Source: Candidatus Hydrogenedentota bacterium
GTDB lineage: Bacteria; Hydrogenedentota; Hydrogenedentia; Hydrogenedentales; SLHB01
Direction of reading: 5' to 3'
Length of the DNA: 64,000 nt
Assembly (NCBI GenBank): GCA_963745075.1
Contig: CAVUWV010000027.1
Span: forward strand, 96,001-160,000
Shown in pieces: positions 20,041 through 38,777 of the stretch (position 1 is the first letter of the stretch; every line of letters begins with the position of its first letter). The notes beneath the pieces are model-generated. The model did not search any database. It was not told the origin of the DNA and was given only the letters and a program-made list of their open reading frames with translations. The translations under genes were made by a program, and so were the position numbers.

Positions 20041-20154
20041 TTCCCGCTCCCTCAAGGCCACAATCCTGCGTTGCTGGACGTAAAGCGTACTCCAATGCAG
20101 GTGCAGAAGAAAGGTTCTTTCGATGGCGAGCAAGAGAATTGTTGCGAGGCCAGG

Positions 20155-21953: not shown

Positions 21954-21983
21954 ATTTTAGGCGTTTGTGGCTGGGGGTGTCAA
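21954..21983 (-). promoter_or_regulatory. Sigma70-type promoter for the FNR gene
   Basis: TTGACA-18 nt-TAAAAT on the minus strand. Confidence 0.55.
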
Positions 21984-22056
21984 TTGGGCAATTGCCCCGC
22001 CCGCCGCTTTCACAGTACGATTGTGCCACGAATCTATAACCAACACGGAGCCATCT

Positions 22057-23657
22057 ATGAACCTGCAACGCCTCCTGGTCGCCATACTCACAGCATACTT
22101 TGCCGCCATCCCCTTGGCCTACGCCCAATCCGCCGCGACCCTTTCCAAAGCTGACTACCTCGACAAGTGCAAGGGAGCGTGGGCGGGGCAGATGATTGGC
22201 GTGTGCTACGGCGCGCCATACGAATTCCGCTCGAACGGGAAACCCATCACGGACGAACTCAAACCCTGGACCCCGGACCGGGTGGCGGGCGCGATTGGAC
22301 AGGACGATTGCTATGTCGAAATGACCTTTCTCAAAGCGCTGGAAGATCATGGACTCGACATCACCTATGCGGAGGCGGGTAAGGCGTTCGCGGATACGCA
22401 GTATCCATTGTGGCACGCGAACCTGTACGGGCGCGAGAATTGCCGTCGCGGCATTATGCCGCCGCTCTCCGGCTACCCTGCATTTAACCGGCACGCCGAT
22501 GACATCGACTTTCAGATCGAAGCCGACATCTTCGGCATTCTCTGTCCGGGACTGCCACGCGAGTCGAACCGGCTGTGCGATGTCTTCGGCCACATCATGA
22601 ATTACGGCGACGGCGTTTACGGCGGGATGTTTGTCGCGGGCATGTACGCAGAGGCCTATTTCGAAAACGATGATATTCTGCGTGTGGTACAGGCGGGCCT
22701 CGCCTGCATTCCCGAGGAGTCAACTTACGCGCGATGCATCTCGGACGTCATCGCCTGGCATGCCGAGGACCCGCAGGACTGGCTGGCGACGTGGAAGAAG
22801 ATCGAGTCGAAATGGCAGGACGACGTCGACTGTGAGCGGCACAATCCCTTCAACATCGACGCCAAGCTCAACGGGGCCTACATCGTCATGGGCTTGCTAT
22901 ACGGCAACGGCGACTTCGTCAAGACGGCCGAAATCGCTACCCGCTGCGGTCAAGACGCGGACTGCAATCCCTCTAACGCAGTTGGCGTGCTTGGTTGCAT
23001 GAAAGGTTTCGAGGCCATGGGCGACGCATTGACCGGCGGCATCGGCGGCATCGCCGATGGAAAGTTCTCCCACACCGACTATTCCTTCGACACGCTGATA
23101 CCCGCGTGTCAGCGGGTGACCGAATCCATCATACGGCGCGCGGGTGGTTCCGTGGGTCGGACGAATACACAATTCCCCGACAGCCGGCACGACCTCCCGA
23201 TACGCTGGAGCAATGGGTCTATCAGGTTGAAGCGTTGGATGAAGCCTTGCCGCAGAACGTGGTCAATCTTTGGAACCCGGCCTGGCACGTCATCGCCTGC
23301 GGCAGTGACATGGAACCCGGACTACGCAGCGAGGTCTTCGGCCGGAAGGGCGTGCTCGTCCTCCATCCCGTGGACGAGCAGCATCCCGCCGCGTTGATCG
23401 GTTCCTTTGCGGTACCCGGCGGGGCACCACGCTTGGTCATCGAGACCGCTTCTGACAAGCGCGGGGACTATCTGCTCCGGGTGTTCATAAATGAGGAATT
23501 GAAACTCGAACGCGTCATCAATACCGGCGGGGAATGGACGACCGCTACGGTGGACCTGATGCCCTACACCGGAAAGAACATCAACGTCCGCATTGAAAAC
23601 GCCGCCAACGGATGGTCATTCGAGGCCGCATACTTCGCCCGCATCGCCATCGAGTAG
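22057..23657 (+). CDS. Secreted ADP-ribosylglycohydrolase-family protein with C-terminal beta-sandwich; frameshift near 23155
   Basis: Signal peptide ending AYA-Q; DKCKGAWAGQMIGVCYGAPYEF, GQDDCYVE and CGQDADCNPSN; adding one G at GTGGG joins the frames. Confidence 0.78.
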
Positions 23658-23663
23658 CCGTTC

Positions 23664-24881
23664 TCAACTCATCCCGGCGCCGGCCGGTGTACCTTCTCCT
23701 GCATACCGTTCCAACAGATCGGCCGCCCGGTTTGCCCCGTCGCTTTGCGCCACAATACGGGACCAGTGTTGTGTCGCGTCGTGGTAGCCATTCTGCTCGA
23801 TCACGGCATCGAGGGCAGACAAAACCGCCTCACCCGTAGCGCGACGTGGCGGCAACACCCGGCAAAATCCGTTGGCGCTGCCGATGCGAGCGTTGGTCCG
23901 TTGTTCCAGGTGCGTGGGGATTGCCACCATCGGCACACCGGCGTTCAGGGCCTGGTACATAGTTCCGTTGCCCCCGTGAAACACGAGCGCACGGCAATGC
24001 CGCAGGATCTCGCTTCCCGGCGCGTACCGCACAATCCGAAAGTTCGGCGGCGCCGCCCCGACCACGTCTACCGACACGCGTCCCGCCGTGGTCACGATGA
24101 ATCGGTACGGGCTATGCGCCAACGCGGGATAGATACCTTTCAACAGCGACTCGAACCGTCCCGTCGATCCCATCGTGATGTACACATTCGGCGTTCCGTC
24201 ATCCAATTCCCCCATCCAATCCGGCGGCGTTTCCGGATAATCGAAAATCAATGGACCTGTCTGCTGGGTTTTTGGAAGCCACGACGATACTCGGTACAGC
24301 CCCGGCAAGTCAGGGGAAATCAGTGGAACGGACTGAAACAACTTCAACGAGTCGATTGGTTTTCTTCCAAACCTTCGATAGACGCGGCGACGTAACGAGG
24401 TCATGTGGTACCACTCGTACCCGCGCCAATACCGCCGCAAGACGGGGTGGGTGAGCACGTAGTCGATGAAATAGGCGTTGAAAAGACTCGCGCCAGGCAC
24501 CCCGGCGAGGTGGGCCGCTGAACTCGCCGTAGCCGTCGAGGCCCCCACCACCAGGTCCGGTTGCTCAGCCCGAATCAGCTCGACCTGGCTTTCCAGAATC
24601 GCGTCCAACGGCGCCCAACGCGTCAGGTGTGACAAATCGTGAAACGCCGCAAGCCATCCCCGCTTCATGTACCGATTCCAGGCGTACGGCTGATCGATCT
24701 CGCGAACCCGCGCCACCCGAAGCCCTGCCTTTGCGGCCAGGGAAAGCTCGGATCGCGATTTCGCCGGGTCATCGCCCGCGATGACGACTTCGTGGCCGCG
24801 GGCATGCAGCGCTTTCCCGACTTCAATGCAATGCGAAAGATGGGCAAGCACGTAGCTTGACGTAAATAGGATAAACTTCAT
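23664..24881 (-). CDS. GT-B glycosyltransferase, GT1/MGT-like
   Basis: N-terminal LAH..RGHEV, VYITMGSTG and UDP-sugar motif FHGGNGTMYQALNAGVPMVAIP..LEQ. Confidence 0.88.
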   Translation of the reverse strand: MKFILFTSSYVLAHLSHCIEVGKALHARGHEVVIAGDDPAKSRSELSLAAKAGLRVARVREIDQPYAWNRYMKRGWLAAFHDLSHLTRWAPLDAILESQVELIRAEQPDLVVGASTATASSAAHLAGVPGASLFNAYFIDYVLTHPVLRRYWRGYEWYHMTSLRRRVYRRFGRKPIDSLKLFQSVPLISPDLPGLYRVSSWLPKTQQTGPLIFDYPETPPDWMGELDDGTPNVYITMGSTGRFESLLKGIYPALAHSPYRFIVTTAGRVSVDVVGAAPPNFRIVRYAPGSEILRHCRALVFHGGNGTMYQALNAGVPMVAIPTHLEQRTNARIGSANGFCRVLPPRRATGEAVLSALDAVIEQNGYHDATQHWSRIVAQSDGANRAADLLERYAGEGTPAGAGMS

Positions 24882-24886
24882 GCGAC

Positions 24887-26197
24887 TTACGACTTGGCGT
24901 ACCGTTGAAGAATCTGGGCACCAGTTGGGCTTCCTTCGCGAGCGAAGCGCTCCAGGAGTTCCGCCGCTGCCGCCGCACCATTGGAACCCCGGACCGATTC
25001 GGACAGCTTTCGAGCGGCTTCGGCGTACGACGGGGTTTGGATGATACGATTCAGGTTGCGCACCAATTGCTCCGGCGATATCCGCCGTGCCCGCATCTTG
25101 ATGCAGAATCCGTGATCGACGCCGATCCCCGTGAGCACGTCCTGTTCAAGATGTGACGGAAGCGAAATCATGGGCACTCCGGCCACCAGAGACTGATACA
25201 TCGTTCCGTTGCCTCCGTGAAAGATGAGGGCCTTGCAGCGTTTGAGAATTTCCGACCCCGGCGCGTAACGCGTGATTCGGAAATTGGGTGGCGCCCGCCG
25301 CACCGTTTCTTCCGCTGCCTGCCCGCCGGTCGTCACCACGAACCGGTACGGAGTTCTGCCTAATACCGAATAGGTGCGTTGTAAGAACTCATCCAGCAGC
25401 CCCGTCGACCCCATGGTGATGTATACGTTGGGCGTTCCATCCTCGAGTTCCGTTATCCAGTCCGGCAACGGTCCCGGGTATTCGGACCAAATCGGCCCGA
25501 CCGTGTGAAAACGCGGGAAGAACGCGGGCGGCTCGTACAGTTCGGGCAAGTCCGGTGAAATCAGCGGCGCCGACCGTAATAATTGCAGCGCGTTGACGGG
25601 TTTCACACCATGGTTGCGATAGACGCGCCGGCGAATCGGGGCCAGCCGCAGCCAATCGTACGACACGGCCAGCGCGTGGTACAGCGAGCCCGGGGTCAGC
25701 AGCCGGCTGGCGTACCCATTCATGATACAAGCCGCCGGCGTGTCCGCAATATACGCGGCGGTCGTTGCGCTGATCGTTGCATCGCCGATGACCAGGTCCG
25801 GCTGCTCTTGCCGAATCAGCCTGACTTGGCTCTCGATGATCTCCTCGAGCTGAACCCACTTACGCAGATTGTGCAGGTCCATCGCCGACGCCAGCCACCC
25901 ATGTTTCACAAACCGATCCCAACCGTACGGGTGAAACGGTTCACGGGCAGATTCCAGGCGAAAACCGGCGCGTTTCACCAGTCCCAATTTGGACCGTGGA
26001 TGCAGCGGATTGTCGCCGCCAAAGACGACTTCATGCCCCCGGGAACGTAGCTTTTTCGCGATTTCGATGCACCGCGACGTGTGGGCGAGCACGTATCCCA
26101 AGGGAAGAAATAGGAAACGCGACGGCCGGGAAGGCCGCAACTCCAAGGTCCCGTGCGCGGGATAGGAAATGCTCGTTGTACCGCTCAATGAGTTCAC
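24887..26197 (-). CDS. GT-B glycosyltransferase, GT1/MGT-like; paralog of the neighbouring gene
   Basis: YVLAHTSRC..RGHEV, VYITMGSTG and FHGGNGTMYQSLVAGVPMISLP..LEQ. Confidence 0.88.
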   Translation of the reverse strand: MNSLSGTTSISYPAHGTLELRPSRPSRFLFLPLGYVLAHTSRCIEIAKKLRSRGHEVVFGGDNPLHPRSKLGLVKRAGFRLESAREPFHPYGWDRFVKHGWLASAMDLHNLRKWVQLEEIIESQVRLIRQEQPDLVIGDATISATTAAYIADTPAACIMNGYASRLLTPGSLYHALAVSYDWLRLAPIRRRVYRNHGVKPVNALQLLRSAPLISPDLPELYEPPAFFPRFHTVGPIWSEYPGPLPDWITELEDGTPNVYITMGSTGLLDEFLQRTYSVLGRTPYRFVVTTGGQAAEETVRRAPPNFRITRYAPGSEILKRCKALIFHGGNGTMYQSLVAGVPMISLPSHLEQDVLTGIGVDHGFCIKMRARRISPEQLVRNLNRIIQTPSYAEAARKLSESVRGSNGAAAAAELLERFAREGSPTGAQILQRYAKS

Positions 26198-26270
26198 AAC
26201 TATTTGCTGCTTCCGTGCATCACACCGTAGCTCCGCTAGTCATCGCCGGACGGGAATTGGCATACGCTCC

Positions 26271-29200
26271 CTACGCCGGAACGCCGACCTCGAACGTCTC
26301 TACGGTCTCCTTTTCCACGCGATGGTCCGCTTCGTCCAAACAGACCTCCAACGCCTCGGCTACACCCGCCGCATCCGGGTCCGCGAGCATCGAAATATGG
26401 TTGCCTGGAACGGGGCGCATGTCGATCGATCCCTTCACGAAGGGACGCCATCCCAGAGTCCTGTCGCTCAGCCAGCGCCGCAATAGTCCGCTTCGCGCCG
26501 ACGTAATAAGTGTGTCCTTGACCAATTGTGGGAATCCGCGCACGATGGCGCGCCAGTCCCGCTTGAGCAAAACCCACAACTGTCGCATCGAGGGAATGAA
26601 CGAATCTTCCGGGATGACCGCGAAAAAACCGCTCGTGTACAAATACGCCAGCCGGCCCGCATACGGGTCCGGGCAATACCGCATCGATGCCTTCATACCT
26701 TCCCGGCAATTGTCAACCAGTCCATGGATGGCGCCCGGCCCGGCGCTTGGGGCCAGGAAATTCACCCGCTTAAGCTCTTCCAAAACCGCGGCGTACTGGG
26801 CGTTCGGCTCCAACTTGCGCAAGGTCCGGTAACGCAGGTCGATTTGCGTCGAGAAAAAATGCTCGACCATCATCATGACGCTCGCCAGCCACATGGCATC
26901 GTCCGACGCGTCCAACAGCAGATTGTACAGCTCGCTGCTCCGAGGCCCGGGAAGCGGCGCGAACGTGTCCATGAGGACGACCACACCCACATCATGTCCC
27001 TGTTCCTTCAACTGCCGGGCCATTTCAAAGGCGATAGTCCCTCCCGACGAGTGGCCGCCGAGATGGTACGGACCCTCCGGTCGAACCCTGCGCATGGCCT
27101 CGATATAGCACGAGGCCGTTTCCTCCACCGTGTCGAACATGCGCCCGACACCGTTGATTGCCGGCGCCTGCAATCCATAGAACGGCCGGTCCGGGTCCAT
27201 GTGCCGCGCGATGGGCAAATAGCAAAAGACCGTCCCCGGCGCCGGGTGTACGCAGAAGAACGGATTCTTCGATCCCTCCGGCTGGATGGGCACTACTACC
27301 GATTCCGCCAGCGCGTTGCCCGACCGCAACACCCCCGCGAGACGCTCGATGGTCGGCGCTTCAAACAATTTAGCCGGCGCCAATCGTTGCCCGAACCGCC
27401 GCTCGATCTCGTCCATGAGTTGGACCGCCGAAAGCGAGTGACCGCCGAGATCGAAAAAACTGTCCGTCACCCCCACGGGCCGGACGTCCAGGACGTGTTC
27501 CCAGATGCGCTCAAGCTCCAGTTCCAACGCGTCCCGCGCGGCCTGCGCCGTTCCGGAAACGTCCCGCGCGCTTCGGGTTGGTTGGGGCAGTGCGTTTCGA
27601 TCGATCTTTCCATTGGGTGTCAATGGCAGCCGATCCAGCGTGACAAATGCCGTCGGGACCATGTATTCCGGAAGCGATTCGCGCAGGTAGGCTTTCCATT
27701 CACCGTTGTAAGGCTTTCCATTCTGTTTCGCGACCACGTAGGCGACGAGCCGGTGATCGTCGGGCACGTCCTCCCTTGCTACGACCACGCTGTCGGCGAC
27801 CGCCGGATGTCTGCGCAGGCGGGTTTCAATCTCACCCAACTCGATTCGGTACCCACGAACCTTCACTTGGTGGTCCTGCCTGCCCAGGAACTCGATATCC
27901 CCGTTTGACCGGTACCGCGCGCGGTCGCCCGTCCGATATAACCGGTCGCCGGACCGCTCGCTGAAGAGGTGGGGGATAAAACGCTCCCGCGTCAACGCGT
28001 CCCGGTTCCAGTACCCCCGCGCAACGCCCACGCCGCCGATGTACAGCTCCCCGGCGATGCCCGGAGGCACGATTCGCATGGACTCGTCGAGGATGTACAT
28101 TTGGGTGTTCGCGATCGGGCGCCCGATGGGTGGATTGCCCTGCGTCGTGCCGTTACAACGCGCGATGGACGCGCACACGGTCGTTTCCGTCGGTCCATAC
28201 GCATTGAAGAACTTCCGGCCCTCTGACCATTCCCTGACGACCATGGCCGGGCAGGTCTCGCCCGCGGCGACAACCGTCTCCAAGTCCGGCAGTTCCGAAC
28301 CGTCTACTACTTTCAACACGGATGGGGGCAGCGTCACCGTCGTAATCCGTTCGTCCCGCAGAACCCCCAGCAAGTCGTCCGCCGCCGCCATGGTTGCCTG
28401 CCGCGCCAGGACCAGCGTCGCCCCGGTACACAACGCCATAAAGATTTCCGACACGGACGCGTCGAAGCTGAGCGAGGCAAACTGCAAGACCCGGCTGTTC
28501 TCGTCCACACCAAAGCACCGCGTCTGGGCGTCCACCAGATTGCACAGACCGCGATGCTCGAGCAGTGCGCCTTTGGGATCGCCGGTCGATCCGGACGTAT
28601 AGATGACGTAGGCAAGGTTGGACTTCGTCGCGACTCGTTCCGGGTTTTCTGACGGGTAACGTGCAATCCGATCGAAATCACGATCGATACAGATGATTGT
28701 CGCGCCCGACCCCGGCAACAAATCCACGACCCGCGTTTCCGTCAGCAATACCGACGCCTGCACATCGCGAATCATGAACGCCAGCCGTTCGGGAGGGTAT
28801 CCGGGATCGAGCGGAACGTAGGCGCCGCCCGCCTTCATGATTCCCAGCAGGCCCACCACAGTCGTGATAGACCGATCCATACACAACCCAACCATGATCT
28901 CCGGGCCGACCCCTTTTTCGCGCAACAAGTGAGCGATTTGGTTCGCACGGCGGTTCAGTTCCGCATACGTGATCGTGTCGGATTCAAAAACCAGCGCCGT
29001 CGCGTCCGGCGCTCGATCCACTTGGGTTTCAAACCATTCCTGCACGGTCTCGTATGGAGCGGCGGGCGATTCCGTTCGATTGAGATCCTGTTCGAGCGCG
29101 TTGCGCCGGTCCGCGGAAATCAATGCAACTTGGCCCACGGGGAGCGATGGATCGTTCAACATGCAGTCCATCGCCTCGATCATCTGATCGATGGTGAGTT

Positions 29201-30416
29201 GCTGCGCTTCCTCATCGAAAAGCGCCTGATTGAAATCGAATGTAATGCCGAGATTCCCGGTCGCCGGATTGTCGTAGAAATTGACGACCAGCGGGTCCGC
29301 TCCGTATCCGGAATGGAACCATCGGATCTCGCTGGAGGTTCCACGAAAATCAGGGATGGTCCACAGCAGATAATTCAGCATGACATCATGGGACTGTGTA
29401 TTTACGAGGTTGTGGAGATATGCGGCGCTGTTTCGCAGACACGAAGCGGCATCCATGGCCACTTTTTTGATCGTCGAGAAGAGGGTGTCTTCCTCATCGA
29501 CTGTCACGCGTAACGGCAACACGCCGATGAAAATGCCGATCGTCTGCTTGTACACGTCGGGCCGGCGATTGTGGAACGGCATCCCGATCGAGATGTCCCG
29601 AATCCCGCTCATCCGGTGCAGGTACGTCGCGAGGACCGCCGCAAATATATTGAACGTGGCGGCAAACGGCGTTTTCGTCGCTACGTTTTCGTGCAGGGCC
29701 AACGCCCGAATTCGCGCCGTCCGTTCCTCACCCAGATCGTAGCGGCGATGGCTGATGGTTCCGACCCGGCGCGTCGTCGCCGTACCGTAAAACGAGATTG
29801 GATCCGGCGTGGTTTCAAGTTTGGATTCCCAGAACGCCAATTCATTGGGATCGGCATTGGCGCCGCGATGCGCCAGCTCATGCCCCACGTAGTCCATAAA
29901 CGACGGAATCACGGGTGCTTCGTCCAGCGTTCCGTCCATCGCTCGTCCGTAATACTCGTCGAGATAGCGCAACGTGATCAGTACCGAAAAGGCGTCGCAG
30001 ATGATATGGTGCTGGCAGAAGTACCAGGCGTACTTTTCACTGCCCAGTTTGATCAACGCCGTGTCGAACAGTCGTTCGTGGAGGTTAAACAACGTGCGAC
30101 ACCGTTCTTCGGACCAGCGTTCAAAATGCGCAACTGGATCGGGTTCGTTCGAGAAGTCCAACGCTACCAAGGTGTATTCGATCTCGGAAAGAACGCGTTG
30201 CTGGGGCACACCATCGACCACGTCCACTACTGTGCGCAATGCATCCGCATTTTGAACCAGCCGATGGAATGCCCGCTCAAAACACGCCGAATCAACCGCC
30301 ATCGGGATGATCAGTCCCAACGCGTTGTTGTACAGGGGGACGTCCGGGTTGAGTCGCTGCCCGAGCCAGAAGACCAACTGCGCCTTCGTCAAATTCGAAC
30401 GTTCGTATATGTCCAC
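26271..30416 (-). CDS. Monomodular nonribosomal peptide synthetase (starter-like C, A, PCP, TE)
   Basis: C: LTKAQ..W and WYFCQHHIICDA; A: YTSGSTGDPKG, NAYGPTE, YRTGD, KVRGYRIELGEIE, NGKID; PCP: FFDLGGHSL; TE: GHSSGG and GNH. GTG at 30416 has a GGAG RBS; alternative ATG at 30461. Confidence 0.95.
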   Translation of the reverse strand: MDIYERSNLTKAQLVFWLGQRLNPDVPLYNNALGLIIPMAVDSACFERAFHRLVQNADALRTVVDVVDGVPQQRVLSEIEYTLVALDFSNEPDPVAHFERWSEERCRTLFNLHERLFDTALIKLGSEKYAWYFCQHHIICDAFSVLITLRYLDEYYGRAMDGTLDEAPVIPSFMDYVGHELAHRGANADPNELAFWESKLETTPDPISFYGTATTRRVGTISHRRYDLGEERTARIRALALHENVATKTPFAATFNIFAAVLATYLHRMSGIRDISIGMPFHNRRPDVYKQTIGIFIGVLPLRVTVDEEDTLFSTIKKVAMDAASCLRNSAAYLHNLVNTQSHDVMLNYLLWTIPDFRGTSSEIRWFHSGYGADPLVVNFYDNPATGNLGITFDFNQALFDEEAQQLTIDQMIEAMDCMLNDPSLPVGQVALISADRRNALEQDLNRTESPAAPYETVQEWFETQVDRAPDATALVFESDTITYAELNRRANQIAHLLREKGVGPEIMVGLCMDRSITTVVGLLGIMKAGGAYVPLDPGYPPERLAFMIRDVQASVLLTETRVVDLLPGSGATIICIDRDFDRIARYPSENPERVATKSNLAYVIYTSGSTGDPKGALLEHRGLCNLVDAQTRCFGVDENSRVLQFASLSFDASVSEIFMALCTGATLVLARQATMAAADDLLGVLRDERITTVTLPPSVLKVVDGSELPDLETVVAAGETCPAMVVREWSEGRKFFNAYGPTETTVCASIARCNGTTQGNPPIGRPIANTQMYILDESMRIVPPGIAGELYIGGVGVARGYWNRDALTRERFIPHLFSERSGDRLYRTGDRARYRSNGDIEFLGRQDHQVKVRGYRIELGEIETRLRRHPAVADSVVVAREDVPDDHRLVAYVVAKQNGKPYNGEWKAYLRESLPEYMVPTAFVTLDRLPLTPNGKIDRNALPQPTRSARDVSGTAQAARDALELELERIWEHVLDVRPVGVTDSFFDLGGHSLSAVQLMDEIERRFGQRLAPAKLFEAPTIERLAGVLRSGNALAESVVVPIQPEGSKNPFFCVHPAPGTVFCYLPIARHMDPDRPFYGLQAPAINGVGRMFDTVEETASCYIEAMRRVRPEGPYHLGGHSSGGTIAFEMARQLKEQGHDVGVVVLMDTFAPLPGPRSSELYNLLLDASDDAMWLASVMMMVEHFFSTQIDLRYRTLRKLEPNAQYAAVLEELKRVNFLAPSAGPGAIHGLVDNCREGMKASMRYCPDPYAGRLAYLYTSGFFAVIPEDSFIPSMRQLWVLLKRDWRAIVRGFPQLVKDTLITSARSGLLRRWLSDRTLGWRPFVKGSIDMRPVPGNHISMLADPDAAGVAEALEVCLDEADHRVEKETVETFEVGVPA

Positions 30417-30578
30417 CCCATGAACTCCACCGATGCCGGGGCCGGGTTCTGCTGGAACCATGCGTATTGCTGCGCCGCCGGCAAGTCGCGTTCAGCACCG
30501 CGGTCTCTGATTAAATGTCACCGAATTGTTGCGCCCAAAACCGCTTTTGTGTCCTCGAGTCCGGCATTAGGCCGCTCG

Positions 30579-31529
30579 CTACCCGTGTTCGGCCAGCGAA
30601 CTCGTGCCCGCTTCGACCGCGGGCCGGTCCTGTGGCGCGTGTGCCGGGCCCACGGAGAACCCCCGCTCCCGCAGCACCGCACGAATCTCCTCGTGGAGCG
30701 CTGACGCGAGTTTTCCCCGTTCCTTCAGGAAGCCCGGGCAATTGTGGCGGCCCGTCGGCACCGGAACGAGCTTGATTTCCGAAAGGTGTTTTACGTAGTC
30801 GGCCTGATTCGCGTCCGGACGGCACCGTTCTCCGTAGAAGATCGTACCGATAGGCCGGGGATTCGCATTTTCGTAAACGGAAAGCACATCGAATAACTCC
30901 GTATCGCCGAGTTCTTTGCTGCACCAGTGCGTAATCACATTGGCCGCCAAGGCCACCAGCACGACCTCGATATAATCCTTCGGCCGGGAAAACAAGGCCT
31001 TGACGTCGCATAACGCCCGGAGTTGTGGCTTCCATCCGGTCCAGACCGTCGGCGGGAACGCCGGCGAAAACGCAATAACATGGTCCATGTTGCAACGCAC
31101 GCCAAAATAGAATGCCGCGCTGCCGCCTCCCGACGCACCCATCGCCACATGATGCGTTGCGCCAAGACGGTCGCAGATTTCCTGCACCTTTTGCGTGTAG
31201 TACTCCAATCCGTTCGGCTGCCCGTCCGGCGCCACATGGTAGGCCATGCGCCGCAAGTCCCGCAGGAACACCAGATTCGTTTCATGCCCCAATCCGGCCA
31301 ACTGCTTGCGCATCTCGAAGCGGGGTTCCCCGGCAAACAGCACATCCATCCCGGAAAAGATGACGATGGTCACGTCCGCGCCGCGATCTTCGATCCGAAA
31401 ATAGTCGGCTTCGTTCGAAATGGCGTTCTCGCCTTCAAACACTTTGAAGGTGCCTTCCTCTTCCATGTTCCGCGCCAGGCTTGGCAGGAACATGCGCGTC
31501 AGCGCCTGGAAAGCCTTTTCTTTCAGCAT
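30579..31529 (-). CDS. Alpha/beta-hydrolase-fold protein (esterase or acyltransferase-like)
   Basis: Nucleophile elbow MGASGGG, VIAFSP and C-terminal GRH; GGAG RBS before ATG 31529. Confidence 0.65.
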   Translation of the reverse strand: MLKEKAFQALTRMFLPSLARNMEEEGTFKVFEGENAISNEADYFRIEDRGADVTIVIFSGMDVLFAGEPRFEMRKQLAGLGHETNLVFLRDLRRMAYHVAPDGQPNGLEYYTQKVQEICDRLGATHHVAMGASGGGSAAFYFGVRCNMDHVIAFSPAFPPTVWTGWKPQLRALCDVKALFSRPKDYIEVVLVALAANVITHWCSKELGDTELFDVLSVYENANPRPIGTIFYGERCRPDANQADYVKHLSEIKLVPVPTGRHNCPGFLKERGKLASALHEEIRAVLRERGFSVGPAHAPQDRPAVEAGTSSLAEHG

Positions 31530-31564
31530 GAACGTCTCCACCGGTTTCGTAATGTGTACTCGGT

Positions 31565-32710
31565 TTATGCCTTTGCCGGAAGTCTCTCAACGAGAAGTTC
31601 CTCGTACACCTGCTTCACGGCCGCGGCCTGAACTTCAAGAGAATAACACCGGGTCGCCTTGTCACGTGCCGCCCGGCCCATATTCACCGCCAACTGGCGG
31701 TCTTGACTCAGACTCGCCAGTGCTGCATGCAGCCCGTCTACCGAGCCGTCGAATACAAACCCGTCCACGCCGTCGTCGACAATCTCCGCCAACATGCCCC
31801 GGTTCGCCACGACCGCGGGTCTTCCCATGGCCATGGCTTCACGAACCGCCCGGCAGGTCCCGTCGCTTCCCGGCACGAGAAAGACTTTGACTGAAAACGC
31901 CTTGACCATGCCGACGTAGTTCTCGCCCGCGATATAGCCGGGAAAGTGCACGCGGTCTGTAAGTCCCAGTTCTTTTACGGGTTGCCAACCCACCCGTTCC
32001 TGGTTCGTGCCACGACCCACTACTATAGCATGAGCGTCGCACCCGGCGTCCACCAGACGCCGAATCGCCCGGAAAAAGTCCTCGTATCGGCGGTGCGTCT
32101 GCATCCGGGCCACGATGCCCACCACAAATGCGTTACGCGGAATTCCCAGCCAACGCCGACCGTCCGGCACCTCCCGGGACGGGTCAAAACGTTCCACATC
32201 TACAGCTCCCGGAAGTACTTGCATAGACTCGCGGGGGAAGCCGTAGGTTTCAAGATCATGTTCCAGTGCGACTTGCGAGGGTTCCAACAGGCGGCTCGTA
32301 GCGGCCAGAAGGGGCCCCTGCCGGGCCGGACATTGAAGGCCCGTGCCGTCGTAATTGGAGCGCACCACAGGGATTCCCCGTTTCCGGGCCGGGCCCAGCG
32401 CCACTCGATGATCGTTCTCCAGATGACAGTGCAAGATATCGTACGGGGTGCGGTCCAGGAATCGCCCAAGAGCCCGGCTGTCAATAAAATTGCCAACGGG
32501 ATTCCGGTGTTTGGATAACCGGAACTGGAGAATCGGCTCGACGCCGCGGTCGCGGGCTGTTTCCAGCAGGGTGTGCTGTTTCCCCGCCGGGAGCGCGGGA
32601 AAGGCCAGGTCGGCTTCCACGCCGGCGCGACGCAACGACACGCACAGGTTTAGCGCCGGTTCCGCCGGACCCGTATATTTCGCGTTGCTGAAGAGGTGAA
32701 GGACTCGCAT
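31565..32710 (-). CDS. Glycosyltransferase family 4
   Basis: MRVLHL, GAVDVERF, VGIVARM, V.F.GY and EAMAMGRPAVV...EIVDDGVDG. Confidence 0.88.
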   Translation of the reverse strand: MRVLHLFSNAKYTGPAEPALNLCVSLRRAGVEADLAFPALPAGKQHTLLETARDRGVEPILQFRLSKHRNPVGNFIDSRALGRFLDRTPYDILHCHLENDHRVALGPARKRGIPVVRSNYDGTGLQCPARQGPLLAATSRLLEPSQVALEHDLETYGFPRESMQVLPGAVDVERFDPSREVPDGRRWLGIPRNAFVVGIVARMQTHRRYEDFFRAIRRLVDAGCDAHAIVVGRGTNQERVGWQPVKELGLTDRVHFPGYIAGENYVGMVKAFSVKVFLVPGSDGTCRAVREAMAMGRPAVVANRGMLAEIVDDGVDGFVFDGSVDGLHAALASLSQDRQLAVNMGRAARDKATRCYSLEVQAAAVKQVYEELLVERLPAKA

Positions 32711-32777: not shown

Positions 32778-35700
32778 CTACGCAGCGCCCTCGAACTTGA
32801 CGCTTACCAACTGGGAAACTCCGCGTTCTTGTTGCGTGACGCCGTACAGCGCATCGGCCTTCGACATGGTTTGCTTGTTGTGCGTAATGACCACAAACTG
32901 GCTCGACGCCGTGAATTCCTCTAGGAGCGCAAGAAAGCGGCCGATGTTCGCGTCGTCCAGGGGGGCATCCACCTCGTCCAGCACGCAAAACGGACTGGGC
33001 TTGGCCTTGAAGATGCTGAACAACAGGGCGACCGCCGTCATGGCGCTCTCGCCACCCGAAAGCAAGGAAATCAACGTCGGCTTCTTGCCGGGAGGCCGCG
33101 CCTCGATTTCGATTCCGGATTCCAGCGGATCGTCTTCATCGAGCAGATAGACCCGGGCCTGGCCGCCGTTGAACAAACGGCGGAAGTAATTGCTGAAATT
33201 GTCGCTGATACTTTTGAACGTATCGAGAAACATCTCGCGAATGCGCTTATCGCTTCGTTCGATCACGCCCATCAGCGCTTCCCGGGCTTCGTGCAGATCC
33301 TGCGATTGGGTTTCGAGGAAAGTGTTGCGCTCTTCCAGAGCCTCGTACTCTTCAATGGCCATTAGGTTGACTTCGCCCATCCGTTGAATCCGTTGACGCA
33401 ATTCGTCTACCAGCTTATGGCGTGTCTCGTCGTCGTACTCGTCCGTCCCCACATTTTCGGCGTCCAACGAGGCCAACGAGACCTGATACTCATCGGCGAT
33501 GCGTTCTTGGAAGAACTCCACGCGATCCTCGTTGTGACGCAGTTGCAGTTCCAGGCGATGGACCTCGGACTGGGCCGAACGGGATTCCTCGCGGTACTGC
33601 TTGAGCTCTTTGTCGATTGCATCGCCCTCGTCGAGAAGAGTTTGAAGTTGGTTCTGTGCTTCGACCGCTTTGCGCGTCGCCTCTTCTTTGGTTTCAGACA
33701 ACGCCTTAGAACGTTCAATATTCAGGGCGATATCGCTTTCAAGGGTGGACCTCTGCTGCTCCAATTCCTGGATCAATTCCGCCCGGCGCTCAGCCTGCGT
33801 GAGAGCTTCCGTCCGCTCCCGTTCTTCCCGTTGCCGGTCGCGCTCCACTTCCTCGAGGCGTTGCGCAAGGCTCGCCTTCCTGACGCGCAAGTCTGCCAGC
33901 GTGCTCGAACACGCGGACAACGCTTGGCGCGCTTGCGATGCCGCCTCCTGTGCTTCTGACATCTGCTGTTGGAGTATCTCGTCGTCGCTCTGGATCGTGT
34001 CCGCGCGCTGCAATGCCTCACGGCGCTGCGCTTCGAATTGTTCGCGGCGCTGGCCAAGTTCATTACGGCGTTCATCCAGCGCGTGCCCGGCTTGCACGAG
34101 GTTATCGAGTTCCGCCCCCGACCGGGCCACGACGACACCCACCTCGTTGGCCTCTTTGCGAAGACTCGCGAGACGGCCATCGAGCGCGGTCAGTTCCCCG
34201 GCAACTTCCGACAGCGCCGTGCTCAGGCGTTCACGGTCGGCGGCAATGCCCTTAATAATACCCTCCGCCTCGCTCACGCGCCGTTCCAATTCCGCAATTT
34301 CCGCGCTGCGGCCCAGCAGCCCGCGACTTTCGTGCCGCGTGCGTCCACCGGTCACCGCTCCCGCCGAAGACACGACTTCGCCGTCCAGCGTGACCAGCCG
34401 CGGATGGCCGGTTCGTGACCGGGTGATGCGGATGGCGTCGTCCAGGGTTTCCACGATGATAGTGCTGTGAAGCAGATACTCCACCGCACTCTGCAACCGC
34501 GGATCGAACCGCACGTAGTCAATCGCCATGCCGACGACCCCGGGTTGATCGCGCAAGGACGATCCGTCGTCGCGCAATCCGCCGCGAATCGTGTCCAGCG
34601 GCAGGAAGGTCACGCGCCCTGCCGTGTGCTGTTTGAGGAATCCGATCGCATCTTTCGCCGCGTCGGCGTTTTCGGCGACCACATTGTTAATGTTGCCGCC
34701 CAACGCCGCTTCGATGGCCTTTTCATATTCCTTATCGGACGATAGCAGGTCGCCCACCGGGCCGATGATGCCGTTCAGTGTACCCATTCCACTGGCTTTC
34801 ATGACGGCCCGGACACCCACCGCGAACCCTTCGTAGTTATCGCGGAGTTCGCGCAGCGAATTCAGCCGCGCATCGATACTGCTTTTCTGTTCGCGTTGGC
34901 TGCGCCATTGTTCGTCCAGTTCTTTGAGCGCCATACTGTGCTCTTCGCGCGCAACTTGTAATTCATCCCGGCGCCGTTCTGCTGCCGACAGTTCGGACTG
35001 TTTCTCGGCTTCCCGCGCCCGGTCCGATTCCAGTGCCGCGAGAAGTTCTTCGCGTCGCGTGGATACGTCGTTCTGTTCCTCGTATACGCGCTCCAGCTGC
35101 GCGTCGGTCGCTGCAATGTTATCCGCGAGCGTCTCGATGGCGCTTTGCGTGCGAGCGCGGTCCGTCATACGTTCCGAGGCTTGCGTACGCATCGCCTCCA
35201 AGCGCTCATCGGCCTCCGCGACCCGCTCGGCAAGCTGGGCGTACTCGACCCCCTGTTGTTCCAACTCCTCCTCGGAACCGGCTAACTCGTTTCGCACCTC
35301 GCTCGCGCGTTCGTCAGTGCCGGTTACCTGCTCGGCTAAGACCGCGGCCCGCCCCTGGAGGGACTGCTGATCTTCGAAGGCCTGCTCTCGCTTTTCGTCG
35401 GCGTAGGCGATCTGCTGGCGGAGCAGTGCGATCTGCCGTTCGATCTTCTCCATCTCGGAATCGATCTCGTGAACGCCCTGCTGGCGTGCCAGCCGCACCC
35501 GCTCCACTTCGAGCCGGTTCAGCCCGACCTCTTCCTGTCGCGCTTCCAGCGTCGTGATCCGGGTGGTCAATCCCTCGTACTGTTTGCTGGACGCCGCAAA
35601 ACCTTTCTTGAGTTCGGCGATTTCGCTCGTCAGCCGTACAAATTCGAACCAGGCCGCGCGGATTTCGATGTCGCGTAGCTGATCCGTCAACTCCCGGTAG

Positions 35701-36341
35701 CGGATGGCGGCGTTGACCTGCCGTTTCAAAGAACGCATCTGCCGCTGAACTTCCGCGATGATGTCACTGAGACGAAGTAAATTCTGCTCGGCCGATTCCA
35801 AACGACGCATCGCGAGCCGTTTGCGGTTCTTGTATTTGATGATTCCCGCCGCTTCTTCGAACAAGTACCGGCGATCTTCCGGCTTCGAACTCAGAATCAG
35901 ATCCATCTTCCCCTGGCCCACCATCGAGTAGGCCTGCGTGCCGATACCCGTGTCCATAAACATTTCATGGATGTCTTTCAGCCGGCACGGGGCTTTGTTG
36001 ATGAGGTATTCACTCTCGCCGGAGCGATACACGCGGCGGGTAATCTGAACTTCCGCAAAGTCTACCGGAAGTTTGGAATCGGCGTTGTCGAAGGTAACCG
36101 AAACCTCCGCCATACCGAGCGCGTGGCGGTTCTCGCTGCCGTTGAACACCACATCCTGCATGTGGGAGCCGCGCAGTTCCTTCGCGCGCTGTTCCCCCAA
36201 CACCCACCGCAACGCGTCCAGAATGTTACTTTTGCCGCAGCCGTTCGGCCCGACAATCGCGGTGACTCCCTGTTCCATGCGAAGTAGCGTGCGATCGGCA
36301 AACGATTTGAAGCCGGTCATCTCGAGTTGCTTAAAGTACAT
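32778..36341 (-). CDS. smc: Chromosome segregation protein SMC
   Basis: GFKSF, GPNGCGKSN, long coiled coils, hinge GRVTFLPL, LSGGE, LDEVDAPLD and VITH. Confidence 0.97.
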   Translation of the reverse strand: MYFKQLEMTGFKSFADRTLLRMEQGVTAIVGPNGCGKSNILDALRWVLGEQRAKELRGSHMQDVVFNGSENRHALGMAEVSVTFDNADSKLPVDFAEVQITRRVYRSGESEYLINKAPCRLKDIHEMFMDTGIGTQAYSMVGQGKMDLILSSKPEDRRYLFEEAAGIIKYKNRKRLAMRRLESAEQNLLRLSDIIAEVQRQMRSLKRQVNAAIRYRELTDQLRDIEIRAAWFEFVRLTSEIAELKKGFAASSKQYEGLTTRITTLEARQEEVGLNRLEVERVRLARQQGVHEIDSEMEKIERQIALLRQQIAYADEKREQAFEDQQSLQGRAAVLAEQVTGTDERASEVRNELAGSEEELEQQGVEYAQLAERVAEADERLEAMRTQASERMTDRARTQSAIETLADNIAATDAQLERVYEEQNDVSTRREELLAALESDRAREAEKQSELSAAERRRDELQVAREEHSMALKELDEQWRSQREQKSSIDARLNSLRELRDNYEGFAVGVRAVMKASGMGTLNGIIGPVGDLLSSDKEYEKAIEAALGGNINNVVAENADAAKDAIGFLKQHTAGRVTFLPLDTIRGGLRDDGSSLRDQPGVVGMAIDYVRFDPRLQSAVEYLLHSTIIVETLDDAIRITRSRTGHPRLVTLDGEVVSSAGAVTGGRTRHESRGLLGRSAEIAELERRVSEAEGIIKGIAADRERLSTALSEVAGELTALDGRLASLRKEANEVGVVVARSGAELDNLVQAGHALDERRNELGQRREQFEAQRREALQRADTIQSDDEILQQQMSEAQEAASQARQALSACSSTLADLRVRKASLAQRLEEVERDRQREERERTEALTQAERRAELIQELEQQRSTLESDIALNIERSKALSETKEEATRKAVEAQNQLQTLLDEGDAIDKELKQYREESRSAQSEVHRLELQLRHNEDRVEFFQERIADEYQVSLASLDAENVGTDEYDDETRHKLVDELRQRIQRMGEVNLMAIEEYEALEERNTFLETQSQDLHEAREALMGVIERSDKRIREMFLDTFKSISDNFSNYFRRLFNGGQARVYLLDEDDPLESGIEIEARPPGKKPTLISLLSGGESAMTAVALLFSIFKAKPSPFCVLDEVDAPLDDANIGRFLALLEEFTASSQFVVITHNKQTMSKADALYGVTQQERGVSQLVSVKFEGAA

Positions 36342-36412
36342 CGAGCGTCAATTGGTTCCTCAACCGCGTCGTGCGGATTGTATGATTCGTTCCGTCGCGT
36401 GAAAACCGGAAT

Positions 36413-37204
36413 TCACACCGTGTCATCCGTCGCGTGCAGCACACGTTCAATCGACCGGGCCATCCCCGTGTCGTCGTCCGCGTCGATCACGACCGCGCTG
36501 ATTCCGGGACGTTCCTTCGCAACCGTGTGGGGCACAGGCATGCCCGTGAGAAACTTCTGCACACTGAGTTTCCGATCGAGTCCAATTACCGAGTCGAACG
36601 GCCCCGTCATTCCCACATCCGTTATGTACGCGGTCCCCTTCGGCAACACGCGCTCGTCCGCAGTCTGCACGTGCGTATGGGTGCCCACGACGGCCGTGCA
36701 TTTTCCGTCCAGATACCACCCCATCGCCACCTTTTCCGCCGTGGCTTCCGCATGAAAATCCACCAAGACCAACGGCGTTTCCGCACGAAGCTTTTCCACC
36801 TCGCAAAGACCCACCTCAAAAGGGCTGGCAAACGGTTCCATGTACACCCTGCCCAGGAGATTCGTGAAACCTACCTTCCGGCCATCCTCAAGCGCAATGA
36901 CCATGCTGCCCTGGCCCGGGCTTTGGTCGGGGTAGTTCGCGGGGCGGATAACCGGACCCACCGAATCAATGCCCTGAATGAGTTCGCGCTTGCGCCACGT
37001 ATGGTTTCCCATGGTGACACCCTGGACGCCCATCGACAGGATTTCCCTCAGGATTGCAGGGGTGGCCCCGAGCCCGCCCGCGGCATTTTCCCCATTCGCC
37101 AGAACCAAGTCAATCCGGTGGGCTTCCCGCAGTTCCGGTAGCCACCGTTTGACACAAGTCCGGCCCACGCTACCGACGATGTCGCCGATAAACAGGATAC
37201 GCAT
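36413..37204 (-). CDS. ymdB: YmdB-family metallophosphoesterase
   Basis: GDIVG, NGENAAGG, MGNH, DFHAEATAEK, GTHTHVQT and DVGMTG; lies downstream of rny. Confidence 0.93.
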   Translation of the reverse strand: MRILFIGDIVGSVGRTCVKRWLPELREAHRIDLVLANGENAAGGLGATPAILREILSMGVQGVTMGNHTWRKRELIQGIDSVGPVIRPANYPDQSPGQGSMVIALEDGRKVGFTNLLGRVYMEPFASPFEVGLCEVEKLRAETPLVLVDFHAEATAEKVAMGWYLDGKCTAVVGTHTHVQTADERVLPKGTAYITDVGMTGPFDSVIGLDRKLSVQKFLTGMPVPHTVAKERPGISAVVIDADDDTGMARSIERVLHATDDTV

Positions 37205-37214
37205 CGGCCTCGAG

Positions 37215-38777
37215 CTACTTCGCCAGTTCGGACGCGCGGGTTTCGCGAATCACGGTCACCTTAATCTGTCCGGGATAGGTCATCTCGGACTCGACCTTGC
37301 GCGCCACGTCCCGGGCCAATTGCATCGCCTCCGCATCGGAAATCCGGTCGGGCTGGACCGCGATCCGAATCTCGCGGCCCGCCTGCAGCGCGTAAGACTT
37401 CTCCACGCCGGGAAACGCGTCCGCGATCTCCTCCAATTGTTCGAGGCGCTTGATGTACGTTTCGACCGTCTCGCGCCGCGCACCGGGACGGGCTGCCGAC
37501 AACGCGTCCGCCGCTTGCACCAGCAACGCCATGACTGACTTTTGCTCCATCTCGTTGTGGTGGGCGCCTACGGCATTCGCAATCGGTTCGCTCTCACCGT
37601 ACCGCTTCACGAAATCATGGCCGATCACCGCATGCGACCCCTCGACTTCGTGACTGATCGATTTCCCGATATCGTGGATCAATGCCGCCCGCTTGGTTTC
37701 CTGGACGTTCAGGCCCAGTTCCGAGGCCATGATTCCGGCGAGGTGACACACTTCCATCGAATGCTTTAACACGTTCTGGCCGTATGACGTACGATAGCTG
37801 AGCCTCCCCAGCAACTTGATGATCTCGGGATGGAGCCCATGCACGTCGACTTCGAGGCAGGCCTGCTCGCCCATCTCCTTGATCGTCTTGGCCATCTCCT
37901 CCTTGACTTTTTCCACCACTTCCTCGATGCGAGCGGGGTGGATGCGACCGTCGGAAATGAGGCGCTCCAGCGTGATACGCGCAATCTCGCGCCGTACCGG
38001 GTCGAATCCCGACAGAATGACGGCTTCCGGCGTGTCGTCGATAATGATATTGATGCCGGTGGCGCTTTCGAGAGCTCGGATATTCCGGCCTTCACGCCCG
38101 ATGATCCTGCCCTTCATTTCGTCGTTCGGCAGCGGCACCACGGAAACCGTCGTTTCCGCGACGTGGTCCGCCGCGCAACGTTGAATCGCCTGGCCAATGA
38201 CCCATTTGGCCTTCTTGTCCGCATTGTCGACCAATTCTTCTTCGATGCGCTTCAAGCGCAACGCCGTATCGCGGCGCACCTCGGTTTCGAGCTGCTGAAA
38301 CAGTTCCTTGCGCGCTTCATCCGCGCTCATACCCGAGATATACTCGAGTTTTTGGGTCTGCTCGGCGATGACTTGGGTAAGTTTCTCTTTTTCCTTGGAT
38401 AACGCGCTTTCACGTCCGGCCAGCTCGCGCTCTTTTGCGGCCAGCTCGCCGGCCTTTCGTTCTACAGATTCCACCCGCTTGTCAACGGTTTCTTCTTTCG
38501 CGAGGATGCGCTTTTCCAGCGCTACAAGCTCTTTGCGGAATTCTCGAGCTTCTCGTTCAGCTTCCTCGCGAAGCTGAATCCGCTGCTCTTTAATGGTGGT
38601 ATTCGCTTCCTTGATGATCGAAGCGGCTTCGCGTTCTGCGTCTGAAATGGTCTGGGCCGCGTCTCGGCGCGCCTTGCCCAGTAAACTCCTCCCAAAAAGA
38701 CTGGCGCCGACAACCGCGACGACCAGTCCCGCCACGAAACCTGCCCCGATCCACGCGAAAATCAGTGGATCAGACAT
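37215..38777 (-). CDS. rny: Ribonuclease Y
   Basis: N-terminal TM, coiled coil, KH domain [16 protein letters not shown] domain HDIGK and [20 protein letters not shown]. Confidence 0.97.

Follow-up and report, generated by a model that had tools for sequence, protein, structure and literature searches.

The Alcanivorax borkumensis glycine-glucolipid is made by a route combining an NRPS and a glucosyltransferase; it carries glycine on four 3-hydroxydecanoates, and its cluster encodes a Gly-specific NRPS and a PPTase. Its sugar–lipid–amino acid architecture is also described in the available part of the work on variovoracin (PMC12964202). According to the same part of that work, the clusters of the variovoracin (rlp) family and of rhizoleucinoside contain an NRPS with an N-terminal starter C domain, either mono- or dimodular, which is followed by a GT1 glycosyltransferase; a second glycosyltransferase is optional, and the lipid is supplied from outside the core cluster. 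As far as described there, RlpB ends in a reductase domain, Ser and Leu are selected, the clusters carry MbtH, the second glycosyltransferase is RhlC-like and only Pseudomonadota are represented (PMC12964202). Hyellamide (hye cluster) of Hyella patelloides is a glycosylated, sugar-O-acetylated N-acyl-tyrosine derivative with the sugar on the phenol. In the available part of its description, the acyl chain is proposed to come from primary metabolism, and the hye cluster functions without an NRPS, with proposed roles for an SGNH acyltransferase, a FeeG-type decarboxylase and an LpxA-like acetyltransferase (PMC11959600). Since both starter-C monomodular NRPS + GT1 clusters and a glycosylated N-acyl-tyrosine are described in the available parts of these publications, the novelty that the preliminary description of the locus considered here had supposed for the combination of an NRPS with glycosyltransferases is not supported. 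A search for literature on Hydrogenedentota gene clusters, NRPS and glycolipids revealed, as judged by titles and the openings of abstracts, no work on this locus.

The locus is located in a Hydrogenedentota genome, on contig CAVUWV010000027.1, within a stretch of 64,000 nucleotides that was analyzed as a whole (the window). It contains five intact ORFs, all co-directional on the minus strand (Table 1), and the gaps between them, counted from the first start codons, are 23, 117, 73 and 5 bp in the order from GT4 to GT1b. ORF calls thus confirmed the five co-directional genes with short gaps noted initially, with the correction that the run continues upstream of GT4 as rny-ymdB-smc, smc ending 67 bp before GT4. 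The rny-ymdB-smc order is the same in relatives with and without the NRPS. As reported at first, the 39 window ORFs scanned contained neither a PPTase or MbtH nor an acyl ligase. A single PPTase-family gene is present in the genome, on another contig; MbtH (PF03621) gave no match in the genome (89.7% complete), and there is neither room nor an ORF for an MbtH gene between the five genes. The locus contains no acyl-activating gene, transporter or regulator. Promoter and terminator scans gave counts at chance level (9 vs. 6.0 ± 2.7 and 19 vs. 19.8 ± 4.9, respectively). The GC and GC3 content of the five genes is in line with that of the housekeeping neighbours and thus gives no sign of recent transfer; the matches listed in plasmid searches were all below 32% identity.

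Table 1. Genes of the locus and its upstream context (window coordinates).
Feature	Coordinates	Strand	Details
GT4 glycosyltransferase	31565..32710	-	381 aa; PF00534/PF13692
Alpha/beta-fold serine enzyme ("hydrolase")	30579..31541	-	Probable start ATG 31529, 316 aa
Single-module NRPS: C (starter type)-A (Tyr code)-PCP-TE	26271..30461	-	Probable start GTG 30416, 1381 aa
GT1a glycosyltransferase	24887..26197	-	PF06722/PF00201
GT1b glycosyltransferase	23664..24881	-	GT1-type Pfam families
rny, ymdB, smc (housekeeping context, not pathway)	32778..38777	-	Pfam RNase_Y_N, YmdB, SMC_N

Pfam analysis showed the C-A-PCP-TE architecture originally proposed for the NRPS, with C at residues 23–456, A at 477–952, PCP at 983–1044 and TE, a PF00975 thioesterase with a Ser-Asp-His triad, from residue 1067. 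The catalytic motifs are intact, namely His151-His152-Asp156 of the C domain (within WYFCQHHIICD, the motif pointed out earlier), Ser1009 of the PCP and Ser1138-Asp1165-His1355 of the TE. The best PDB sequence matches of the C domain were CDA synthetase I (E 3e-21) and, ahead of it, the N-terminal C domains 7C1K/7C1H (E 4e-27), of which 7C1K is the starter domain of RzmA; the match to TycC 2JGP, an LCL domain, was much weaker (E 1.6e-10). C domains were then compared in a FastTree phylogeny of 36 rows, with the domains cut out using an HMM built from the orthologues of the query. The C domain fell into a clade (support 99) with EntF and three N-terminal C domains of plasmid NRPSs, separate from the internal elongation types, and its subclade includes two internal C domains as well. 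The PDB matches and the tree thus support the earlier assignment to the starter and not the elongating type: the domain groups with acylating C domains and, with its HHxxxD motif intact, is predicted to perform acyl transfer.

Alternatively, a PKS or PKS-NRPS encoded elsewhere, on contigs C24 or C31, could feed the NRPS in trans as its terminal module. FAAL/PKS systems are present on both contigs, a second monomodular NRPS is located on C18, and some proteins (G028) have related C domains placed in cis behind carrier domains. However, an N-terminal docking domain was not found (no TubC_N match), unlike in the C24 NRPS, the C domain lies outside the clade with the C24 elongation domains, and the C24 and C31 systems each possess their own TE; feeding in trans is therefore highly improbable.

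The ten-residue code of the A domain, DASTVAAVCK, was read in GrsA numbering, with the positions assigned by analogy to the GrsA motifs. It is identical in 10/10 positions to the tabulated Tyr code of CepA (PMC11355689), in agreement with the aromatic substrate predicted at first. As a single word, this code was not found in the literature. The probable reaction of the NRPS is the attachment of a fatty acid to tyrosine, and the predicted N-acyl-tyrosine core is well supported by the starter-type C domain together with the CepA-equal code.

The NRPS was found in 13 of 135 genomes of the phylum, belonging to three genera, between which SMC is ~70% identical. It was inserted once, between older hydrolase and GT1 genes. 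In 9 of the 10 genomes with a readable downstream side, covering all three genera, the gene right after the NRPS is a co-directional GT1; in the exception, G015, this place is taken by an SDR and a GT1 paralogue in convergent orientation. In two metagenome contigs, a TE-ending ORF stands just before a GT1. The complete five-gene layout was also found in one second genus, and in genus g8 the hydrolase is gone from the locus with NRPS-GT1 kept. The NRPS-GT1 synteny assumed in the preliminary description is thus borne out in relatives. The amino-acid code varies between the genera, with DAML[IV]GAVYK, DP[CL][LM]EGxVCK and DVQFVAQVVK in orthologous NRPSs, and orthologue identity dips to 30–48% in the specificity subdomain of the A domain, compared to 54–63% in its flanks, GT1a being retained.

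The hydrolase-GT1 pair predates the NRPS and persists in genomes without a condensation domain. Both genes co-occur in 17 relatives without this NRPS, a C domain of any kind was found in none of the five such genomes tested, and smc-GT4-hydrolase-GT1 runs without interruption in G022 and G023. In view of these data, the new pathway suggested at first is not supported as a self-contained one. Of 61 genomes, 27 encode close homologues of GT1a, and the hydrolase is present in 25 of these; GT1a is the ancestral partner of the hydrolase. Since GT1a adjoined the hydrolase before the NRPS arrived, the NRPS-GT1a adjacency may be a by-product of the insertion site. The NRPS could then be a passenger yielding free N-acyl-tyrosine, with the hydrolase, GT1a and GT1b still serving an NRPS-independent lipid as in the relatives. 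In addition, a GT1a homologue (57% identity) overlaps a PKS/alpha-oxoamine-synthase operon in Halomonas organivorans and stands alone in Vreelandella, so acceptors can vary. We consider this explanation rather unlikely, since the NRPS-GT1 adjacency is maintained across the three genera even where the hydrolase has left, and genomes with the NRPS account for most of the finds in the clade of the second GT1.

GT4 was found in 53 of 61 relatives and adjoins smc in the smc loci read, including those of the NRPS-less genomes G019, G020, G021, G022, G023 and G034. Because of this near-universal presence and its place beside smc, GT4, which had been counted among the pathway genes, is probably a housekeeping gene and not a dedicated pathway gene.

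Both GT1 assignments were upheld by GT1-type Pfam families. The GT1 of the locus has a GT-B fold, an N-terminal catalytic His and a UDPGT/EryCIII-type C-terminal domain, as in the CAZy family GT1, and its fold matched that of CalG2 (Z 38.2, rmsd 2.9, 378 aligned residues), with UGT51 and OleI within ~1 Z. GT1a contains His39 and the putative dyad residue Asp139; in 159 aligned GT1 rows, the His is present in 156 and the putative dyad Asp in 148. The best PDB sequence matches of GT1a were weak (E 4e-17), and the named rows among the 120 homologues listed belong to Hydrogenedentota or Halomonas. As GT1a has no characterised close relative, its donor and acceptor are not readable from sequence. 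GT1b is 49% identical to GT1a, has the same GT-B GT1 fold and keeps the catalytic residue (His14), with Ala114 where the putative dyad Asp would be. In one quick tree, it forms its own old clade with the second tandem GT1 of G322, and this clade is distributed mainly in NRPS-bearing genomes (G000, G005, G015, G322), G035 being a long-branch exception; the 11 rows without the dyad Asp are all inside or next to it. The own clade and the tandem in G322 led us to reject GT1b as a recent strain-level duplicate. A motif resembling that of mycobacterial phenolic-glycolipid rhamnosyltransferases suggested a kinship with these enzymes, which found no support, as no such name occurred among the 17 distant representatives looked up.

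An acidic acceptor, for example a phenol, would fit the absence of the putative dyad Asp in a GT1, as in GT1b. A plain N-acyl-tyrosine could carry the sugar on its tyrosine phenol, with the hydrolase-fold enzyme then O-acetylating this sugar. This would resemble hyellamide, an N-myristoyl tyrosine enamide with an O-acetyl-xyloside at its phenol (PMC11959600), and the same functions would be provided here by the Tyr code together with a GT1 and a fold like that of an O-acetyltransferase. However, GT1a and tandem GT1b are kept beside NRPSs with non-Tyr codes (DPLLEGAVCK in G322, Leu-like codes in G012 and G327), where the residue may be a hydroxylated one, and GT1a is present without any NRPS. 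This argues that the first sugar is independent of the tyrosine phenol and makes such a product unlikely.

The hydrolase gave no Pfam or NCBIfam match (Pfam at E 0.01), a search of PDB sequences with its profile yielded no significant match, and the profile showed no resemblance to the TE of the NRPS; but its predicted structure is confident (pLDDT 87.9) and matches alpha/beta-hydrolases, as the gene had been named at first. The triad Ser133-Asp239-His262 is conserved in aligned rows (Ser in 49/50, Asp or Glu in 50/50, His in 50/50). The best structural match was 6OYC_B (Gap2/Asp2; Z 18.7, rmsd 3.1, 223 aligned), with esterases close behind (next entry, Z 16.9) and CsaC 6YUO at Z 16.4 (rmsd 3.3, 201 aligned). 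In the first Atlas cluster, Asp2 (PF16929) is carried by 11% of members. The O-acetyltransferases Asp2/Gap2 and CsaC are described, in the available part of the source, as having an alpha/beta-hydrolase fold with a Ser-Asp-His triad (PMC5578698; PDB 6OYC, 6YUO). From fold similarity at 14–15% identity to these structures, the hydrolase is proposed to be an Asp2/CsaC-like sugar O-acyltransferase.

A role like that of RhlA, which according to the accessible text has an alpha/beta-hydrolase fold with a Ser-Asp-His triad and the partner RhlB (PMC5352749), was also considered. The hydrolase would then build or release a (3-hydroxy)acyl chain from acyl-ACP, the GT1 would glycosylate it and the NRPS would cap the carboxyl with an amino acid; groupings of hydrolase, GT1 and GT2 in G007, G038 and G040 mirror rhlABC. 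Such a role appears distinctly improbable given Gap2/Asp2 as the top structural match with CsaC in the next group, and Asp2 as the Atlas lead. In addition, the hydrolase profile found no match in three Halomonadaceae genomes that possess the GT1, and the variovoracin producer has no RhlA homologue. RhlA does not appear among the structural matches listed for the hydrolase.

The PKS/alpha-oxoamine-synthase neighbour in Halomonas and SDR neighbours also suggested a sphingolipid. This candidate was rejected, as alpha-oxoamine synthase had no match in the genome, nor in the hydrolase + GT1 genomes G019, G021, G022, G023, G039, G042 and G044; matches were found in 14 of 61 genomes overall.

Our preferred reading, with a probability of about 0.48, is that a pre-existing glycolipid module acquired the NRPS late and that the product is a sugar-O-(hydroxy)acyl-tyrosine, O-acylated and with an optional second sugar. 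The PCP would be primed in trans by the PPTase of the genome, the A domain would load tyrosine onto it, and TE release would yield N-acyl-tyrosine built with a putative acyl donor. GT1a, if it acts on the NRPS product at all, is proposed to add the first sugar; as in variovoracin and rhizoleucinoside, its most likely site is a hydroxyl group in the lipid portion. The enzyme resembling Asp2/CsaC would O-acylate (e.g., acetylate) this putative sugar. GT1b, where present, may attach the second one by another kind of acceptor chemistry, with a sugar hydroxyl, a phenol or a carboxylate as the acceptor. The end product would be an amino-acid-capped glycolipid, serving as a membrane lipid or biosurfactant. 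The N-acyl aromatic amino acid with one or more sugars envisaged in the preliminary description thus keeps its starter C domain, Tyr code and synteny as support, with the product itself predicted; the role of GT4 and the novelty of the logic were not supported.

A bolder and, in our view, doubtful version holds that an undescribed hydrolase-GT1 glycolipid became an amino-acid-capped family through one NRPS, the specificity subdomain of which is exchanged between genera, and that the dyad-less GT1b glycosylates either the freed carboxylate or the phenol, which would make the product a double-headed glycolipo-amino acid. If true, Hydrogenedentota would thereby have their first associated lipid chemistry, as far as the literature found shows, and a natural system of exchangeable head groups.

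If the preferred reading is right, the few glycolipid biosurfactants made by NRPSs gain a TE-released, tyrosine-capped branch, and the origin of a pathway from a single NRPS dropped into an existing glycolipid module is illustrated. With three or four genes plus Sfp, the pathway would be a short one, natural orthologues provide at least three other amino-acid codes, and the GT1 enzymes of cultured Halomonas and Vreelandella strains, 55–58% identical to GT1a, offer a route to the acceptor. No concept is overturned, and the product is a prediction from the genes.

A comparison with the described systems indicated that this locus, unlike hye in the available part of its description, includes an NRPS and has no genes for an SGNH acyltransferase or a FeeG-type decarboxylase. 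The Alcanivorax cluster differs in its amino acid, a Tyr code being found here, and in its PPTase, the only match for which lies on another contig here. The pairing of an alpha/beta-fold enzyme with a GT1, and sometimes a GT2, in NRPS-free relatives parallels RhlA/RhlB/RhlC; rhamnolipid synthesis has no NRPS, unlike this locus. With Asp2 and CsaC the hydrolase shares the fold and the Ser-Asp-His triad, Gap2 being its best and CsaC a near-best match; those enzymes act on glycoproteins or capsule, whereas no accessory Sec or capsule genes are present at the locus. As in the variovoracin and rhizoleucinoside clusters, a starter-C NRPS adjoins a GT1. Their descriptions, as far as available, set the present locus apart by its TE in place of a terminal reductase (amino alcohol), its Tyr code, the absence of an MbtH match, a GT1 paralogue as the second glycosyltransferase and the Asp2/CsaC-like enzyme. 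Thus, the design is likely the known one of variovoracin and rhizoleucinoside, of which this locus represents a TE-released variant with a Tyr code.

The preliminary description had reported five co-directional genes with short gaps; the ORF calls place them on the minus strand (table), preceded in the same direction by rny, ymdB and smc (Pfam). The genome belongs to Candidatus Hydrogenedentota, judging by homologues that carry a name. All five look intact, since each has full-length matches to relatives. Next to them, the ADP-ribosylglycohydrolase-family gene that converges on GT1b carries a frameshift in the present assembly: it is split near 23160-23240 but forms a single 538-aa gene in the relative G003. 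Several genomes with the NRPS keep this gene downstream. The split is either an assembly error or a pseudogene. Overlapping or split ORFs of the DUF4838 and GH38 genes suggest indel errors in this assembly.

Positions of the five-gene set, of other genes in the window and of related loci elsewhere
Feature	Position	Strand	Basis
GT4	31565-32710	-	ORF call
Hydrolase	30579-31541	-	ORF call
NRPS	26271-30461	-	ORF call, Pfam C-A-PCP-TE
GT1a	24887-26197	-	ORF call
GT1b	23664-24881	-	ORF call
ADP-ribosylglycohydrolase family	21967-23657	+	
GH38 alpha-mannosidase	17250-20133	-	
DUF4838	9492-11040	+	
Second C-A-PCP-TE NRPS, this genome (G000), contig C18	L047:7754-11818		
FAAL-reductase fusion, G000, contig C31	L076:8293-11556		
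Hydrolase paralogue, G000, contig C24	L044:9561-10535		
Third GT1 paralogue and SDR, G000, contig C10	L043:8964-11041		
GT1a homologue and sulfatase-PKS-synthase run, Halomonas organivorans	L070:161-11266; L068		
GT1b-clade gene and acyltransferase/hydrolase fusion, relative G015	L081:7019-10579		

The catalytic motifs of the NRPS are intact and kept in orthologues. Its C domain alone matched best 7C1K/7C1H (E 4e-27), CDA synthetase I (3e-21) and ObiF1 (1.5e-19), and more weakly TycC 2JGP (1.6e-10) and EntF (1.8e-8); the starter or LCL labels of these entries are presumed. In a FastTree analysis of 36 C domains, excised using an HMM built from the orthologues, the query domain grouped with EntF and with three plasmid NRPSs' N-terminal C domains in one clade (support 99); the C24 elongation domains of this genome fell in another clade, and other internal plasmid C domains also lay apart; two internal C domains fell inside the query's 17-row subclade. 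These matches and this clade bear out the starter-type C domain proposed earlier. The proposed aromatic substrate was also supported, as the A code, DASTVAAVCK, is identical at 10/10 positions to the CepA Tyr code in a table from the accessible part of PMC11355689. As had been stated, MbtH, PPTase and acyl ligase are missing from the window, at least from the 39 ORFs scanned; MbtH had no match in the genome (89.7% complete), whose one PPTase-family gene is on contig C31.

The second NRPS of this genome, also stand-alone and starter-type, is 35% identical to the query (code DAFFLGVTFK), has similar matches in congeners, and no glycosyltransferase was recognised adjoining it. Contig C31 has a fusion of a FAAL-type adenylation domain with a terminal reductase domain; it adjoins an MMPL transporter and may be a synthase of fatty alcohols or aldehydes.

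NRPS orthologues were found in 13/135 phylum genomes, in three genera (6/6, 5/5 and 2/3). All 13 loci were read, 12 being readable upstream and 10 downstream. GT4 lies upstream in 12/12 and the hydrolase in 10/12; a co-directional GT1 follows in 9/10, across three genera, so the expected synteny of glycosyltransferases and NRPS holds for GT1. The tandem GT1a-GT1b occurs in 2/10, namely here and in G322 of another genus; in G015 a convergent GT1 paralogue and an SDR take the place of the co-directional GT1. GT4 is present in 53/61 relatives and follows smc in loci without the NRPS as well, which argues against its proposed role as a pathway gene. The hydrolase was found in 31/61 relatives and close GT1 homologues in 27/61 (a hand-made list; 4 of 31 positives with only 29-40% identical matches were dropped). 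The hydrolase occurs in 25/27 genomes with a close GT1 vs 6/34 of the remaining genomes, kin not being independent. Seventeen of these 25 genomes do not have this NRPS, and any C domain was found in 0/5 of those tested (95-100% complete); a self-contained new pathway is thus not borne out.

Hydrolase and GT1 are directly adjacent without the NRPS in G022, G023, G038, G039, G041, G042 and G051 and in 5/26 metagenome loci, and the order smc-GT4-hydrolase-GT1 is uninterrupted in G022 and G023. In an SMC tree of 11 genomes with full SMC, the 6 NRPS-bearing genomes share a single branch (support 98), whose neighbours are G021 and G023. The simplest history would be that the NRPS entered once between hydrolase and GT1. 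That the NRPS is a passenger, with hydrolase and GT1s acting on a lipid independent of it, appears rather unlikely. A 238-aa GT2 occurs in 18/61 genomes; in six loci that lack the NRPS (L053, L056, L057, L066, L085, L087) it adjoins the hydrolase or GT1; in this genome it is unlinked, on contig C21.

The code differs among orthologues: DAST[VI]AAVCK in the query's genus, DAML[IV]GAVYK in genus g8, DP[CL]LEGAVCK in genus g11 and DVQFVAQVVK in one partial protein. The g8 code is close to the Leu code DAMLVGAICK of RlpB, the variovoracin NRPS (accessible part of PMC12964202). Orthologues with non-Tyr codes are 30-48% identical to the query in residues 641-775 vs 54-63% in flanking A-domain parts; those with Tyr codes show no such dip, a pattern that would fit subdomain exchange. 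GT1a persists beside changed codes and also where the NRPS is absent; a hydroxyl of the lipid is thus a likelier acceptor for it than the phenol of tyrosine, and a phenol glycoside is unlikely on the same grounds.

A model of the hydrolase built from 50 of 61 homologues (pLDDT 87.9) has an alpha/beta-hydrolase fold; its triad is kept (Ser133 in 49/50 rows, Asp239, as D or E, and His262 in 50/50). In a second-look alignment, Gap2/Asp2 (6OYC_B) was the top match (Z 18.7, rmsd 3.1, 223 aligned), followed by esterases (Z 16.9) and CsaC (Z 16.4); esterases and CsaC were tied in a wide structure search of representatives. Asp2 O-acetylates GlcNAc (accessible part of PMC5578698). Our best guess from the model is a sugar O-acyltransferase; a plain esterase is less likely, and an RhlA-like role (cf. 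accessible part of PMC5352749) quite improbable. The paralogue on C24 (39%) adjoins a PaaK-like CoA ligase, a possible acyl-activating partner.

GT1a and GT1b are 49% identical. GT1b and the second GT1 of G322 form their own clade (support 92), whose members in G005 and G015 lie away from the NRPS locus; two metagenome records whose contigs equal in length those of NRPS, hydrolase or GT1a hits hint that there may be further tandems. The catalytic His is kept in 156/159 aligned rows and Asp139 in 148/159, and the 11 rows that lack Asp139 are all GT1b-clade members or similar to them. In the structure this position is where the fourth N-terminal strand ends, the presumed place of the GT1 dyad acids, and CalG1 has Glu there. 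GT1b, lacking this putative dyad acid, thus probably acts on another type of acceptor. The best structural matches of GT1b (CalG2, UGT51, OleI) score almost equally and name no function. The third paralogue (45%) forms a tandem with an SDR for which mycolate reductase was the best NCBIfam match, below the cut-off; GT1-SDR neighbourhoods recur in G003, G015, G019 and G021. The GT1b-clade gene of G015 lies upstream of an acyltransferase/alpha-beta-hydrolase fusion, another lipid context for the family.

The GT1 family occurs mostly in Hydrogenedentota and also in 3/201 Halomonadaceae genomes, a patchiness that makes transfer from Hydrogenedentota possible. One Halomonadaceae copy overlaps a PKS/alpha-oxoamine-synthase operon: the Halomonas organivorans gene (57% to GT1a) overlaps the synthase stop codon in a sulfatase-PKS-synthase run, which we take to resemble wcbQ-R-T or rkpI-A-G, and may glycosylate a PKS-derived amino-lipid. 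For the locus studied here, a partner PKS acting in trans is very improbable.

In the scheme that we favour, at slightly under even odds (about 0.48), the NRPS would load Tyr, its starter C domain would N-acylate it and the TE would release N-acyl-tyrosine; GT1a would add a sugar to the lipid part, the hydrolase-fold enzyme would O-acylate the sugar, and GT1b could attach a second one. The glyco-lipoamino-acid interpretation thus stands as regards starter C domain, Tyr code and GT1, but not as regards GT4, self-containment or new logic. Literature on the phylum yielded nothing on this locus in titles and abstract openings. Hyellamide, a glycosylated, O-acetylated N-acyl-tyrosine, is made without an NRPS (accessible part of PMC11959600). 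The combination of NRPS and GT1 is already known: according to the accessible part of PMC12964202, variovoracin-type clusters have a GT1 alongside a starter-C NRPS, which is often monomodular, and their products are sugar-lipid-amino-alcohol surfactants. The present locus would work like these clusters but without their R domain and MbtH.
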